Of a DNA stretch of 43,779 bases, positions 7,240 to 25,264 are shown piece after piece. The notes below the pieces were generated by a model, which was not told the DNA's origin, made no database searches, and worked only from the letters and a program-made list of their open reading frames with translations. The DNA is from a virus (taxonomy: Duplodnaviria > Heunggongvirae > Uroviricota > Caudoviricetes): the IMG/VR virus record IMGVR_UViG_2534681654_000010; one strand, 5' to 3'. The position numbers and the translations under genes are program-made. The stretch's first letter is position 1. The number at the start of each line of letters is the position of its first letter.

Positions 7240-7800
7240 TTATTTTTCCGAAACGCTCGCAGGATAATAACGATAAAGGGTTGAAAGGCCGATATCAAAA
7301 ATAAGTGCCACCTGTCTTCGACTGACACCCCCGGCCAGTAAACGCCCGACCTGCTCGTATTGTTCCTGCGTGAGACGACGGGGTCTGCCGCCGGTTCGTC
7401 CCCTTTCACGGGCAGCTGCAAGACCAGCCCGTGTCCGTTCGACAATTAATTCACGCTCCATTTCTGCCAGCGCACCCATTATGTGAAAAAAGAAGCGCCC
7501 CATGGGGGGTGACGTATCAATGTTGTCAGTAAGACTACGAAAATTTATCCCCTGTTGCTGTAATTCATCTGTCAGCGCAACAAGGTGGCGCATACTGCGC
7601 CCCAGCCTGTCCAGTTTCCAGACCATCAGTGTGTCACCGGGTTTTAGTTTCTTCAGTGCCCGCTTCAGTCCCGGCCGCTGTGTCGTTTTACCACTCATTT
7701 TATCTTCAAAAATCTGCTCACATCCTGCACATTCCAGCGCATTTCTTTGTAAACCTGTGTTCTGGTCATTTGTTGATACGCGTATATAGCCAATCAGCAT
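7240..7800 (-). CDS. gin: Gin-type serine recombinase (DNA invertase)
   Basis: MLIGYIRVSTNDQNTGLQRNALECAGCEQIFEDKMSG… is a typical Gin/Hin/Pin/Cin resolvase-family invertase with C-terminal HTH; adjacent to the invertible tail-fibre segment. Confidence 0.9.
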   Translation of the reverse strand: MLIGYIRVSTNDQNTGLQRNALECAGCEQIFEDKMSGKTTQRPGLKRALKKLKPGDTLMVWKLDRLGRSMRHLVALTDELQQQGINFRSLTDNIDTSPPMGRFFFHIMGALAEMERELIVERTRAGLAAARERGRTGGRPRRLTQEQYEQVGRLLAGGVSRRQVALIFDIGLSTLYRYYPASVSEK

Positions 7801-7880: not shown

Positions 7881-8226
7881 TACTGTAAACAGGGCCGCGA
7901 ATGCCCTGCCATCGAACGGAGCGGCTGTTGCAGCGAATAAACTCGCCACTCCAAGAAATATTAATGGTGTCCCATTTGACGGAACGCAGGATATAAATAT
8001 TACATCGGGGATGACGCAGTCTGTGGCTGACTCACGTTATGTTCAAAGCATTCGAAGAGGTTCAAGGTCAACGATTGGAATGCAATATAATATTTTTGAG
8101 GTTCCTGACGGATGCGTACTTACAGGGCTTGATGTCGCTGGTGATGGTAATGCAACGGTAACCGCATATTATCGACCTGTTCAGTTTCTGATAGATGGTT
8201 CGTGGAAAACAGCTTCCAGCGCATAA
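7861..8226 (+). other. silent alternative tail-fibre C-terminal cassette (S'v), no start codon of its own in this orientation
   Basis: Frame open from 7777 to 8226; encodes …ALPSNGAAVAANKLATPRNINGVPFDGTQDINITSGMTQSVADSRYVQ… homologous to the C-terminal region of the expressed fibre gene on the opposite strand, then a different tip (…YYRPVQFLIDGSWKTASSA). Confidence 0.65.
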
Positions 8227-8305
8227 AAGTGCAGTAGTTCAAAAAACAGATTATCTGAATAAATATATGATGATTTTGTCTTTTCAACAAAAACAAGGTG
8301 AAATA

Positions 8306-8827
8306 ATGGAGCTTATTAACGTAAAACGATATTACCCGGAACACAAACCCTATGGTGAGGATGTTCAGTATTTCCAGAGTGAGGACGGAAGGGATTTTTA
8401 TGAATCTATCCCGCTTTTCACAAAGAAATACAAACTCTGTATTTCGCCTGTAACGGGTATTATCTGCTCTGTTGCTGAAGATGTCTCTGCTTTATATCCG
8501 GCAGGTTTTACTGTTGTTGAAGTGGACGAACTGCCGGAAGGTGTGAATATTGACGGTAACTGGCAGTTTTCTGATGGCCTGATATCAAAGGTGCCGGTAA
8601 ACTGGAAGACGGTTGCTGAAAAGCGCCGCTCATCGCTGCTCCAGGAAGCCAACGAAACTGTGGATGACTGGAAAACGGAATTAAAACTGGACATGATTAG
8701 CGATGAAAATAAATTACAGCTGACGCGCTGGATGGCGTATATCCGACAGCTTAAAGAAATGCACTTTAATGATATTGCCAGTGAGGGGCATTACCAGGCG
8801 ATTCCCTGGCCGGAAAAACCGGAATAA
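8306..8827 (+). CDS. tail fibre assembly chaperone (U'/Tfa-like), inside the invertible segment
   Basis: 174-aa product MELINVKRYYPEHKPYGEDVQYF… with a Tfa-type C-terminus; follows the S'v cassette on the same strand; AT-rich. Confidence 0.7.
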   Translation: MELINVKRYYPEHKPYGEDVQYFQSEDGRDFYESIPLFTKKYKLCISPVTGIICSVAEDVSALYPAGFTVVEVDELPEGVNIDGNWQFSDGLISKVPVNWKTVAEKRRSSLLQEANETVDDWKTELKLDMISDENKLQLTRWMAYIRQLKEMHFNDIASEGHYQAIPWPEKPE

Positions 8828-19695: not shown

Positions 19696-20256
19696 TTACA
19701 GTTCCTCCGGCGGTTCGACCGCCGTTGTCGTGTTCCCCGGCAAATCAATATGTGCCTCAAACGGCGGCGTACCGGGCGGCTCCACAAAGGTTTCGTAATG
19801 ACGCAGGAAGTCGTCCAGCGAGCTGGTATCGGTCAGCGGTGCGATCATTTCCTCGCAGGAGAAATAAAGCGCATACATCACCGCACCACTGTCCGCCTGG
19901 GTTTCGGTGTAACCGTTGACCGCCTTTTCAAAGTAAAGCGGTGAGGTTTTTTCTGTTCTGAAGCCGTTAAGCACGGCAATCAGCCGGGCCACAATCTGAT
20001 ACAGTCCGGGACGGCTGGCCTCACGCCCGTTGAGCATGTCGCCGATGACGTAGAACACCCAGTGACTGACCAGGCGACCACGGGTACGGCCTTCACCGGC
20101 ACCCAGCCAGGCAACGTAGATCGCCGGGGCGTTAATCAGCATGGTGCGCAGTACGCTGTCGCTCCAGTCGCCGGGATGCGTGTCAACAGACACCAGTTCA
20201 TTCCCGAAATACTCACGGATACGGGCGATGTATGCCTGTTCGGTTTCCGTAATCAT
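19696..20256 (-). CDS. Mu gp37-like virion morphogenesis protein
   Basis: 186 aa in the head-tail joining region. Confidence 0.5.
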   Translation of the reverse strand: MITETEQAYIARIREYFGNELVSVDTHPGDWSDSVLRTMLINAPAIYVAWLGAGEGRTRGRLVSHWVFYVIGDMLNGREASRPGLYQIVARLIAVLNGFRTEKTSPLYFEKAVNGYTETQADSGAVMYALYFSCEEMIAPLTDTSSLDDFLRHYETFVEPPGTPPFEAHIDLPGNTTTAVEPPEEL

Positions 20257-20672
20257 ATGAAGCCCTTCTGGTTGCGCCCGAATACCGCTGCATCAGACTG
20301 AACCTGTGGTAAATCCCCGGATTCAGGGGCCGCACCGTTCGTATCCACACCGACCGGCACATTGCCGTTCATGACATCTTTCAGCCAGGCCAGCGCTTCA
20401 CGGTAACGGTCACGCGCCTGATCGGAGGCTCGCTGATCGCACAGGTAATAAAAGGCAATCGCGCAACAGTGCTGAACAAGAACGGCCGGAATAACCTCCA
20501 GCGGCAACGTGTAACGGGCGGACAGATAGCTGTCGATAAGGGCTGACGCATCTGTCAGCGCCCGGTTCAGCTTGCGCGTGTCCGGCTCATCCGAACGGGG
20601 CACAGCCAGTAACGGCCTGAGCAAATCCTCGCGGTAACGCGCCCGCATATCGGTTTCAGTGGCGTAATTCAT
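20253..20672 (-). CDS. Mu gp36-like head-tail connector protein
   Basis: 139 aa, overlapped with neighbours. Confidence 0.5.
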   Translation of the reverse strand: MNYATETDMRARYREDLLRPLLAVPRSDEPDTRKLNRALTDASALIDSYLSARYTLPLEVIPAVLVQHCCAIAFYYLCDQRASDQARDRYREALAWLKDVMNGNVPVGVDTNGAAPESGDLPQVQSDAAVFGRNQKGFI

Positions 20673-21055
20673 GCACGGGCCTGTTCCGCTTTGTTACCGG
20701 TCTTTTTCCGGGGAGCATCCTGTCCGGCTTCGGCTTCGGCTTCGGCTTCGGCTTCGGCTTCGGCTTCGGCTTCGGCTAAATCTGTACCGGCCACTGCATG
20801 AACCACACCCGCCACGCTCCCCGCATCATCAGCAGACGTCTGTAGTATTCGCACAGTGAGGCATGGCTCCTCCTCCAGTCGGGCAAGCTGCTCCGGGGTG
20901 ACCTCAACCTGCTGACGTCCACGCGTGAACAGGAACCCCGCACGACGAAACGCCGAACGACTGCAACGCACTTCTGCCAGCACCGTGACAGAATTGTCAC
21001 CACTGACCTGAAGACCTGAATCATCTGTTGCTGCCACAGTGTGATGTTCATTCAT
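20669..21055 (-). CDS. Mu gp35-like protein with C-terminal (AE)n repeat
   Basis: 128 aa downstream of the major head gene; C-terminus contains AEAEAEAEAEAEAEAEA encoded by a hexanucleotide tandem repeat. Confidence 0.5.
   Translation of the reverse strand: MNEHHTVAATDDSGLQVSGDNSVTVLAEVRCSRSAFRRAGFLFTRGRQQVEVTPEQLARLEEEPCLTVRILQTSADDAGSVAGVVHAVAGTDLAEAEAEAEAEAEAEAEAGQDAPRKKTGNKAEQARA
20726..20776. repeat. hexanucleotide tandem repeat (GGCTTC) x8.5, in frame within a CDS
   Basis: Perfect repeats read directly from the sequence; encode alternating Ala-Glu on the minus strand. Confidence 0.9.
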
Positions 21056-21098: not shown

Positions 21099-22046
21099 TT
21101 ACAGATAATCCGCGACAACCAGCTCCAGCTTACCCTTCATCTCGTTAGAGACGGTTGCGTTTCCGTCTGCGAACAGTTCACGCTCCAGCAGCTGCACCGC
21201 CTGTTTTTCCAGCGAGGTGGGGACAACAATATGGGTGGGTTTAATGCCGAGTTTGCGGCCACCGTCAGCGGTAAATTCGCGCATGGCTGACCAGCCGTGC
21301 CACAGTGCATCCAGCGTCAGCGGTGACTGCATCATGTAGGCCATCTGCCAGAAGCCGTAGCCCACATTGCGACGGGCGGATGCACCAAACACAAATTCGT
21401 TATCGGTGAATGCGCGACCTTCATCGACTTTGGTCTGGGCAACCAGTTCAGCCTTACGGCGATCCTGATAAATCAGCGGTTTTACCGCGCGGGAGCAGTC
21501 AAGCAGATACCAGGCCGGACCGCTGTAATCAGCCTGTGCGCCGACAGAGCCGGTTTTTGCCACAAACATATTGCTGACCATCTGCGCATCCCCGGAGCCA
21601 TCCACTTTGGGGTAAACCGGATGTTCGGTATCAAAGAAGTTCTGACCGTCATAGCAGGCCGCACTGATCCCGTCACGCAGGGCAGCAAAGACCAGCTCAT
21701 CCGGTTGTACCGCCGCAGCGCGCCCCATCTCCTGGAACAACGGGGAATAAATACCGAGGTTGTCGTCTTCGAAGTCATCGCGGCTAATGGCGACAGTGCC
21801 TTCAAAAGTTTTGTTCACGATGGCATAGCCATAGGCTTTCATCTTCTCGATGACGCGGGAGCCGATCCACTCACGGAACTGCGGGAACTGCCCCAGCCAG
21901 CCGTAGGTGTTGGATTTCGATGTGGAGGGCACGGTCATCGCAATTTTTTTATACTGCGACGGGGCCATGGACATCCCGGCCTGAAAATCAGAACGGTAGC
22001 CCGTCATCAGGGCTGTGATCATCGCCGGTGTAATCGGGGTAGGCAT
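21099..22046 (-). CDS. major head subunit (Mu T-like)
   Basis: 315 aa; position and sequence character match the Mu major capsid protein. Confidence 0.75.
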   Translation of the reverse strand: MPTPITPAMITALMTGYRSDFQAGMSMAPSQYKKIAMTVPSTSKSNTYGWLGQFPQFREWIGSRVIEKMKAYGYAIVNKTFEGTVAISRDDFEDDNLGIYSPLFQEMGRAAAVQPDELVFAALRDGISAACYDGQNFFDTEHPVYPKVDGSGDAQMVSNMFVAKTGSVGAQADYSGPAWYLLDCSRAVKPLIYQDRRKAELVAQTKVDEGRAFTDNEFVFGASARRNVGYGFWQMAYMMQSPLTLDALWHGWSAMREFTADGGRKLGIKPTHIVVPTSLEKQAVQLLERELFADGNATVSNEMKGKLELVVADYL

Positions 22047-23170
22047 TATTGCATTTCCTCTTTCATTTTCAGGAACTCGGCTTCGGTTTTACCCAGCAGT
22101 TTGGCGGCCGCGATATCTTCAGCCGACAGCGCAGCGGTGGCAGTCTTTTTATCCGGCACGGTCACGGTGTCGGTCTGAAGAGAGGTCAGGGCCGCAACCG
22201 GCTGGCGGGCGTCAAGCTGTGCAGAAAGTGCCGCAACGCCAATCTGCCCGCCCAGTTGTTCCAGATAGCCGCGTTCGCTTTTGAAGATGCGCCCTTCGGA
22301 TTCAGCCTTGTCCAGCACCTGCTCCAGCGTGGTGCTGCCGTGCTGCGCCGACAGCGCAACGTATTCGGTACGCAGGGCGTTATACGTTTCAACGGGCACG
22401 TATTTCGTCAGATCAATAATGCCGCCAGCCGGTGTGCCTTTTGCGGTTTCCAGCTCTGCCGACAGACTGGCGACCTGTGTTTTCAGGTTGTCGTGTGCAT
22501 CCGCACGGGTTTTGATCCCGGTGAGGGCAGACAGCGCCGCCGTGCCCAGCTCCGGCGTAAATTCGTCACCGTCAGCCACGGTCAGACCGAGCGCCGTCAG
22601 CAACTGGCGTAATTGCTCATTCATGGAGGTATCCTTTAAAGGAGGGTTTAAGGCGTTATAAAGGTCATCCGCCGACAGTGCGGCGACAGGATTCATGCCG
22701 GTCAGACCGGGGTCACCGGTAATAGCCAGCATCCGAAGTTCGACAGGTTCGCCGGTGCTCTCGTCATAGCCAATCACCGGTGAAAACCAGGGGAATTCGT
22801 TATTACGCAGATGTTCAAGGGCCGGAGGGTTCCACTTCGGGCGCACCTCGAAACCTCGCTCTTCACTGAAGCGAAAATTCTCCGGTGAGGCCATCACAAA
22901 ACCGGCAGCCGGTGCCGGATGTCCCTCAATCAGGGTCTGGTGGTTGTAGTCAATTTTCACCGGCTGATTGAGCGCCACAACACGGGAGACCATGCGCTCA
23001 ACGGCTGCATGGTTGATCAGCCAGCCTTCCGCCGGTTTTTCCGGGCGACCGTCACGGGCCTTTACCCGACCGGCTGGCATGATCTGACACCAGTCACCGT
23101 CCCCGTCTGCGGACAGGCTGATGGCATTCAGAATGGCATAAGCAAGTTTGGGCGTGTTTTTCGTCTTCAT
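22046..23170 (-). CDS. head maturation protease / scaffold (Mu I-like)
   Basis: 374 aa immediately upstream of the major head gene. Confidence 0.65.
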   Translation of the reverse strand: MKTKNTPKLAYAILNAISLSADGDGDWCQIMPAGRVKARDGRPEKPAEGWLINHAAVERMVSRVVALNQPVKIDYNHQTLIEGHPAPAAGFVMASPENFRFSEERGFEVRPKWNPPALEHLRNNEFPWFSPVIGYDESTGEPVELRMLAITGDPGLTGMNPVAALSADDLYNALNPPLKDTSMNEQLRQLLTALGLTVADGDEFTPELGTAALSALTGIKTRADAHDNLKTQVASLSAELETAKGTPAGGIIDLTKYVPVETYNALRTEYVALSAQHGSTTLEQVLDKAESEGRIFKSERGYLEQLGGQIGVAALSAQLDARQPVAALTSLQTDTVTVPDKKTATAALSAEDIAAAKLLGKTEAEFLKMKEEMQ

Positions 23171-23346: not shown

Positions 23347-23820
23347 TTAAGGCGTTTCTGTGGCCTTTTTAAAGCGTTTTCTGATTTCGTCCATGATCTC
23401 CTGCTCTGCCACCTGATCAAAACCCATATACGGACGTGCACCAATGGCCGCCGGTCCAGGCGGCATACCTGGCAGGCCACCCCACTGATGAATGGCCGCA
23501 TAAGGCTCATTTGATCCAATCAGCGCCCAGGTATCGCCATAATCCGTGGTCAGGCGTCGGGCCAGATCGCCGTTCAGCGTCAGGATTTTGCCGGGCATGT
23601 TTCCCTTACGGGTACGCCACTTGCGGTAAGGATCTGACCAGTCATGCCAGCGTTCGCCGTCCGGCTCTTTTTCCTGTTCAAACGCCATTTCTGACGATGA
23701 CAGAAGGCTGGACGCCACACTGCGGGCCAGGTCTTTTCCACCACCCACAAACTGAAGCCGGGCAAAGACCCGCTGGAGACGCGCAACGTCCACCACCACG
23801 GCTGCATCGATGGATGACAT
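23347..23820 (-). CDS. virion morphogenesis protein (Mu G-like)
   Basis: 157 aa between the F-like and I-like genes. Confidence 0.5.
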   Translation of the reverse strand: MSSIDAAVVVDVARLQRVFARLQFVGGGKDLARSVASSLLSSSEMAFEQEKEPDGERWHDWSDPYRKWRTRKGNMPGKILTLNGDLARRLTTDYGDTWALIGSNEPYAAIHQWGGLPGMPPGPAAIGARPYMGFDQVAEQEIMDEIRKRFKKATETP

Positions 23821-23938
23821 GTTGCCTCCTTAAAACTATCTGATTAAAATAAATACAGGCCGGTGTACTCTTAACTGGTAAAGCGGCATAAACCCTCAGG
23901 GGTCATATGTTTATGCGGGTTCGACCCCCGTCACCGGC

Positions 23939-25264
23939 TTACAATTTACCTTCCAGTAGTTCCAGCTTTCCGCCCTCTATTGCTTTTTCAATATCAAATT
24001 TATTTACCCGGTAAGCATTAATTACCACATCCAGCTTATCCGGCTGGCGCTTCACACCATAAGGCGCATTGACGGCAATCTTTGCCGTTCCGTCACGGGT
24101 TTCAGTGATGTAAAGCAGGTTCTGATGGACATGATCCCACAGCACGGCATCGGGGGCAGCCAGCATGGCGGGAAGCTGCGCGAAATCCTCCGGCGTCAGG
24201 GCGATACCGTCATTCTGATGTTTCACACTGTCCGCATGGAGCACATTTTTACCGCTCATCGCCAGCAGGCGGGCCGGTGGCGTTCCTGTCCGGCTTTCCA
24301 CTGCCTGCGCAATACTTTCGGTCATAAAGCCCAGCGTGCGGATATCGTGACCACCGCGCCGGGTTTTCATGATATTTTTTGCCCAGATGCGGAACGCCAG
24401 CTGCCGCTCCGGGCTGTTGTTCATCTCCTGAACCACCATTTCCCGTAACGCCGGGCTTTTCACCTCGATCAGTTTACGGATCAGCGCCTGGTCTGTGCCG
24501 AACGCCGCCGAACCGGGGTTATATGACCAGCCCACATCCGGTGTCATGGTTCTGGTGCCATCTGAATATGTGGTCACCGGCATTTCTCTGACTTCTCCGG
24601 TCTGTTTATCCACGCCAGCCTCAACATTGCGGGTGGAGAGATGATCCTCACCGGATGAAACGGATAACCCCATTGCAACCAGACGGGCCTGAGACAATGG
24701 CCGCACACGGCAGCGGCAGTTCCAGCCATTGGGTGGGTAGTGTGTTTTCCAGAACGGATCATCATAGCGGAATACCAGACCGTTAAGGGTGGAATGCGAC
24801 GGGCGGGTACGGCTGTCCATGACCGCCACATACTGCCAGAACGGATGCGTGTCCGTGTTGTTCATCATCTGCGTGTAACGCCCGGCATTGTAAGCCACGC
24901 GGGTGTTCACGTTGTAAATCAGCGCCAGACGGCGGGGACTGCCCAGCTGTACTTCTTCTGCGTTACCGGCGCTGTCCACCACAATCTGCTTCCCCCACCA
25001 TCCCAGCTTTTGCAGGCGGGGTGTCAGTGTGCGGATAAATGCTTTCTGTGAAATCCCCTCATCAATGGCCCGTTGCACTTCCGCCTGTAGTGTGGTCAGT
25101 ACGTCCAGGCGTGCCGCTTTTGCCGCCGTGAACGATCGGGCATGAACATCTGCGTCTGTTTCGAACCAGTTCCAGCTGATATGCGCCCCTTTGGCGCGGA
25201 AGTATGCCACCGCCTCTTTTGAGGGAAGGGTGGCGGCATAACCTAAATCAATCCCCTGTGCCAT
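23939..25264 (-). CDS. head morphogenesis protein (Mu F-like minor head protein)
   Basis: 441 aa directly downstream of the portal gene. Confidence 0.65.
   Translation of the reverse strand: MAQGIDLGYAATLPSKEAVAYFRAKGAHISWNWFETDADVHARSFTAAKAARLDVLTTLQAEVQRAIDEGISQKAFIRTLTPRLQKLGWWGKQIVVDSAGNAEEVQLGSPRRLALIYNVNTRVAYNAGRYTQMMNNTDTHPFWQYVAVMDSRTRPSHSTLNGLVFRYDDPFWKTHYPPNGWNCRCRVRPLSQARLVAMGLSVSSGEDHLSTRNVEAGVDKQTGEVREMPVTTYSDGTRTMTPDVGWSYNPGSAAFGTDQALIRKLIEVKSPALREMVVQEMNNSPERQLAFRIWAKNIMKTRRGGHDIRTLGFMTESIAQAVESRTGTPPARLLAMSGKNVLHADSVKHQNDGIALTPEDFAQLPAMLAAPDAVLWDHVHQNLLYITETRDGTAKIAVNAPYGVKRQPDKLDVVINAYRVNKFDIEKAIEGGKLELLEGKL

Follow-up and report, generated by a model that had tools for sequence, protein, structure and literature searches.

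A frame-preserving six-base repeat in the gp35 homologue of a Mu-like Escherichia coli prophage matches the VNTR typing locus EHC-5

In the Mu-like prophage Sp18 of Escherichia coli, the gene for a homologue of Mu gp35 carries a tandem array of GGCTTC that is, with high probability, a coding six-base VNTR, the typing locus EHC-5, whose length is driven by slippage and tolerated in a protein tail predicted to be disordered. The array was analysed within a 43,779-nucleotide stretch of viral DNA, referred to here as the window. It already serves as a fingerprinting marker for enterohaemorrhagic E. coli in outbreak surveillance. New here is the placement of EHC-5 in the tail of a gp35 homologue, a segment that is predicted to be disordered and stands in place of a lost domain, on a Mu-like prophage that appears to have been mobile recently.

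The array consists of eight perfect copies of GGCTTC at 20726..20773 followed by GGC at 20774..20776, the 8.5 perfect units that an earlier sequence-only reading had counted at this position. Tandem Repeats Finder returned the same array (20725..20777, period 6, 8.8 copies, 100% matches) with a score of 106, against 44 for the second-best array within the 43.8-kb window. Matches to a three-unit GGCTTC pattern in the window were confined to the array itself, and the same pattern gave 0 matches in 100 dinucleotide-preserving shuffles of the window. An array of this kind at these coordinates is far beyond chance. Read on the minus strand, as in the mRNA, it becomes (GCC GAA)n and encodes (Ala-Glu)8-Ala, AEAEAEAEAEAEAEAEA, at residues ~94–110 of a 128-residue open reading frame (ORF). 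Translation of this ORF bears out the earlier claim that the array is in frame and codes for (Ala-Glu)n. The tract had also been described as C-terminal; it does lie near the C terminus but not at the end, as 18 residues (GQDAPRKKTGNKAEQARA) come after it, and the protein around the tract reads …TDL-AEAEAEAEAEAEAEAEA-GQDAPRKKTGNKAEQARA. Two further ORFs were called mechanically over the same DNA. One (20671..20859, plus strand) is antisense to the gene and reads the repeat as (Arg-Leu)n; the other (20776..21051, minus strand, 91 residues) is an alternative frame over the gene that is also found in the database. Both are probably spurious gene calls.

The product of the array-bearing gene scores 35.2 bits for FluMu_N (PF17891; E 9.8e-9), above the Pfam gathering threshold of 25.8, and its match to phrog_3622 runs the whole length. 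The FluMu_N domain occupies residues ~21–75 and is followed by a tail with the AE tract and a basic end. Among its relatives, a structure has been solved for HI1506 alone, which is gp35 in the Haemophilus FluMu prophage (PDB 2OUT, E 1.6e-4). The gene stands in the position of the gp35 family, with the order gpT, gp35, gp36 the same as in Mu, where gp36 is the adaptor (PMC11915804). The start codon of gp36 overlaps the stop codon of gp35 (ATGA at 20669..20672), and the genes that come after gp36 are, in order, gp37, a DUF2635 gene and the tail sheath gene (Table 1). That the gene is gp35-like and lies immediately downstream of the major capsid gene had been proposed from the letters alone, and the PF17891 and PDB 2OUT matches and the adjoining gpT gene uphold it. 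NCBIfam had no model for the protein, and no relative turned up when species-representative genomes were scanned with it. The old Sakai label for ECs_4975, 'DNA processing protein', was without support in the present analysis.

Table 1 Coordinates of the array, its gene, the neighbouring genes and the primer sites in the window
Feature	Position	Strand	Basis
Hexanucleotide VNTR	20726..20776	-	(GGCTTC)8.5 on + strand, (GCCGAA)n in mRNA; array matching typing locus EHC-5
gp35 / HI1506-family gene (ECs_4975 in Sakai), 128 aa	20669..21055	-	PF17891, phrog_3622, PDB 2OUT, Sakai annotation
gp36 head-tail adaptor, downstream of gp35	20253..20672	-	PF07030 E 3.5e-35
Major head subunit gpT, upstream of gp35	21099..22046	-	PF10124 E 6.6e-119; phrog_371
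Mu-type protease/scaffold gene, upstream of gp35	22046..23170		
EHC-5 reverse primer site CCGCTTTGTTACCGGTCTTTTTC	20686..20708	+	0 mismatches, unique in window; primer from PMC10062581 S5 Table
EHC-5 forward primer site ATACTACAGACGTCTGCTGATGA	20826..20848	-	0 mismatches, unique in window; primer from PMC10062581 S5 Table

EHC-5 is a VNTR locus in a Japanese typing scheme for enterohaemorrhagic E. coli O157, O26 and O111 (Izumiya et al. 2010; PMC10062581, reference 3). Its two primers are convergent around the array and delimit an amplicon of 163 bp in the window (20686..20848). Judged by these primers, as given in a later paper of the same group (PMC10062581, S5 Table), the array is the known typing locus EHC-5, and both the feature and its hypervariability are already known and in routine use. 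PCR fragment sizing in that paper distinguished alleles 2 to 14 and scored the locus 0 (no product) in 31–100% of O157 strains, depending on the clade (PMC10062581, S3 Table). This polymorphism range and the frequent absence agree with our genome survey, in which a 501-base query spanning the array found the locus in 228 of 5,426 complete E. coli genomes. Absence from many strains, together with polymorphism where the locus is present, is the pattern that fits a locus on a mobile prophage. The later literature found on EHC-5 does not discuss the gene or protein that carries it. The forward primer of a second locus of the scheme, EHC-6, had no match in the window. Most O157 strains lack EHC-6 as well, and its absence in clade 2 equals that of EHC-5 exactly, at 0.762 (PMC10062581, S3 Table); it may lie on another mobile element travelling with the same strains.

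The array-bearing stretch recurs with 100% identity, its 8 units included, in E. coli O157:H7 Sakai and in 17 other genomes among the matches listed, and the Sakai annotation assigns the gene to 'prophage Sp18, Mu-like phage'. Complete E. coli genomes carry the locus in up to 4 places each. The copy of the prophage in strain F1 E4 differs from the window (2854..~41600) by 3 mismatches in ~38.2 kb and occupies a different chromosomal site. The prophage appears to have been mobile recently, and for this reason EHC-5 can be multi-copy and move with the phage. A location on a mobile Mu-like prophage explains why the marker is missing from most strains and why a genome may hold more than one copy.

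Several other features of the prophage were noted. The F1 E4 copy adjoins tape-measure and tail genes of another prophage, and annotations put close copies within Stx1a- and Stx2c-converting phages. RefSeq places a 'tRNA-OTHER' between the virion and head morphogenesis genes of the F1 E4 copy (23432..23512, corresponding to ~23820..23939 of the window); ARAGORN found no tRNA anywhere in the window. By the annotation of strain 118, a recombinase gene neighbours genes for tail fibres and fibre assembly that lie on the other strand (7240..7800, minus strand, and 8195..8827, plus strand). This layout presumably resembles the invertible G segment of Mu, with its recombinase Gin, and by that analogy the tail-fibre region of the prophage may switch orientation.

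The array differs in length between strains. Alleles of 1, 4, 7, 8, 10, 11, 13, 14, 15, 17, 18 and 20 units were read directly from sequence, the 10-unit allele in strain 20R2R and the 17-unit allele as 14 perfect and 3 variant units. The ORF is intact in 12 of these 12 alleles and encodes 117–152 residues. Across complete genomes, the length of the stretch matched by the 501-base query changes in 6-base steps; match lengths in 100 complete genomes correspond to 17 allele sizes, from 1 to 20 units, and to two variants of the tail that lie 9 bases apart (…EQARA vs …KQAKKARA). Proteins in the database show the same length variation, with the variant units AG, VE, SE, TE and KA in some alleles. 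The sequence-only reading had suggested that tract length could vary between isolates with the frame kept, and had proposed comparing copy number across related prophages. That comparison gave widely differing rather than identical numbers, and the suggestion holds for the whole range of 1–20 units, with every sequenced ORF intact.

The variation is set against nearly invariant flanks. Cattle isolates 118, 114 and 131 carry 15, 14 and 13 units, respectively, with 0 mismatches in 40,453 flanking bases, and the F1 E4 prophage carries 20 units compared with 8 in the window, despite the near-identity described above. Unit differences between prophages with such flanks indicate that the array evolves at a much higher pace than the DNA around it. 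Among the database homologues, many are 'partial' proteins with their start or end at the AE tract. Since they stop there, draft short-read assemblies evidently break at the tract, and allele length is often lost in draft genomes. One E. coli homologue in the database reads …PAGTKPKPKPDEGYSRKKTG…, in which two frameshifts that compensate each other enclose the repeat, read in frame +1 (Pro-Lys); it represents a rare allele that is out of frame or else an error in sequencing.

We compared the tail with that of other family members. Mu gp35 (136 residues) has the same N-terminal domain, a linker ending in …TLAEAGG… and then a C-terminal domain of ~50 residues. In the alignment, this two-domain layout is common to Mu gp35 and most of the distant representatives of the family, and the C-terminal domain (…IRxAVAxL…GxPKVxAV…) is missing in the Sp18-type protein. 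There, the conserved D-L is followed by (Ala-Glu)n and a basic tail of 18–21 residues. On the strength of this alignment, the Sp18-type protein is a truncated, tail-substituted variant of the Mu gp35 / HI1506 family. The one-unit allele reads …DLAEAGQD…, close to the LAEAG of Mu gp35, and by this resemblance the array seems to have grown out of one codon pair that was already present.

An AlphaFold2 model built from a 16-sequence alignment placed residues 21–75 in a β-hairpin, helix and strand with pLDDT values of 84–92, and gave residues 79–128 no secondary structure and pLDDT values below 50. The single-sequence model (pLDDT 53.7) was too poor for use. The C-terminal tail with the AE tract is predicted to be disordered, and a segment of this kind is expected to tolerate length changes. 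The two domains of HI1506 are reportedly joined by an unstructured linker of ~30 residues, as described in its NMR study, which would agree with the disorder predicted here. In a fold search with the gp35 model, the only meaningful neighbours were HI1506 and YqbF of Bacillus subtilis (PDB 2HJQ), both with weak scores; the search offered no further lead to a function, and no meaningful structural similarity to decoration proteins was found. A role for gp35 as a capsid decoration or cement protein, like T4 Soc or gp39 of JBD30, was considered and set aside, as neither structural similarity nor capsid density speaks for it. In JBD30, a Mu-like siphophage, a Soc-like decoration protein is the product of the gene that follows the capsid gene (PMC11445458). 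In the 2025 cryo-EM study of Mu, gp35 was not resolved and the capsid bore no cement proteins; the study went no further than to suggest that gp35 might be connector-related (PMC11915804).

The mechanism that we propose combines these observations. Whole GGCTTC units would be gained or lost, most likely by slipped-strand mispairing in DNA replication, and each change would add or remove one Ala-Glu pair. Because the unit is six bases long and spans two codons, the reading frame is never broken and the gene is not inactivated. In the Sp18 lineage, the predicted-disordered tail stands in for the small C-terminal domain of Mu gp35, and changes in tract length would be tolerated there, accumulating far faster than base substitutions. 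We infer slippage from what is established about short tandem repeats in general; in these data, recombination between the units is indistinguishable from it. The length of the tract probably has no functional effect. Instability driven by hairpins in the array was rejected, as neither DNA strand folded better than shuffled controls (z +1.97 and +1.44); slippage needs no such hairpin.

An alternative is that tract length is an adaptive tuning knob, with the acidic (Ala-Glu)n spacer determining how far the basic gp35 tail extends or how its charge is balanced, and certain lengths favoured by host or condition. Homologues that differ in the tract keep the basic tail behind it (RKKTGNKA...), and tract and tail together replace the ancestral C-terminal domain. 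Both points would suit such a role. So would the perfect arrays of the long alleles, although slippage alone also yields perfect long arrays. Alleles of 1 to 20 units are all found in otherwise near-identical prophages, tract length shows no link to any phenotype and disorder is predicted for the tract region. The allele peaks at 8 and 13–14 units reflect clonal sampling, as ~25 of the 100 genomes come from one series of cattle isolates. We regard tuning as unlikely. A more specific version, to which we give slightly less credence still, would have the lost C-terminal domain of Sp18 gp35 functionally replaced by the basic tail on a slippage-adjustable (Ala-Glu)n spacer that tunes a head- or DNA-associated function. 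If the spacer were tunable, EHC-5 would be a length-modulating contingency locus in a phage morphogenesis gene and not a functionless marker. The array would matter more only if tract length changed phage assembly or stability, and nothing here points that way.

It is very improbable that the repeat acts through DNA or RNA, for example by binding protein along the array, by forming a structure or by switching gp35 or the translationally coupled gp36 on and off. The array does occupy the stretch 53–107 nt ahead of the gp36 start, a codon that overlaps the gp35 stop. Against such a role, the window contains no other occurrence of the motif, the aligned position of Mu gp35 carries a single unit and the folding of either strand is no better than that of shuffled sequence. 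Six-base units leave the frame unshifted whatever their number, and each sequenced allele is in frame, which rules out an on/off phase-variation switch. Least probable of all is that low complexity in this region misled sequencing or assembly and produced false differences in copy number: the partial homologues show that short-read assemblies break at the tract, but the differences are all exact 6-base multiples in perfect arrays from closed genomes of many laboratories, and independent PCR fragment sizing of the same amplicon also gives many alleles (PMC10062581).

The slippage-driven, length-tolerant coding VNTR that we favour can be placed among known systems. No difference was found between the array and EHC-5, which by the primer sites are the same locus. 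With Mu gp35 and FluMu HI1506, the Sp18 protein shares the N-terminal domain and its gene the place between the major head gene and the gp36 gene; unlike them, it lacks the C-terminal domain and has (Ala-Glu)n and an 18-residue basic tail instead. Its repeat sits where Mu gp35, which has no tandem repeat, has LAEAG, at the end of the inter-domain linker. The YqbF protein of the B. subtilis skin prophage is further removed, with weak structural scores, no detectable sequence similarity to the gp35 homologue and no repeat tract.

Among typing loci, O157-3, O157-9, O157-17, O157-19, O157-25 and O157-37 of the PulseNet scheme for E. coli O157 are VNTRs that also have six-base units. Like these, the short-unit array described here varies by whole units and serves strain typing; unlike these, it resides on a mobile Mu-like prophage, and it is for this reason absent from most strains and can be multi-copy. 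With the phase-variable contingency genes of Haemophilus and Neisseria, it shares a slippage-prone repeat within a coding region. In those genes, the units shift the frame and switch the gene on or off, whereas the GGCTTC array keeps the frame and changes the length of the peptide alone.
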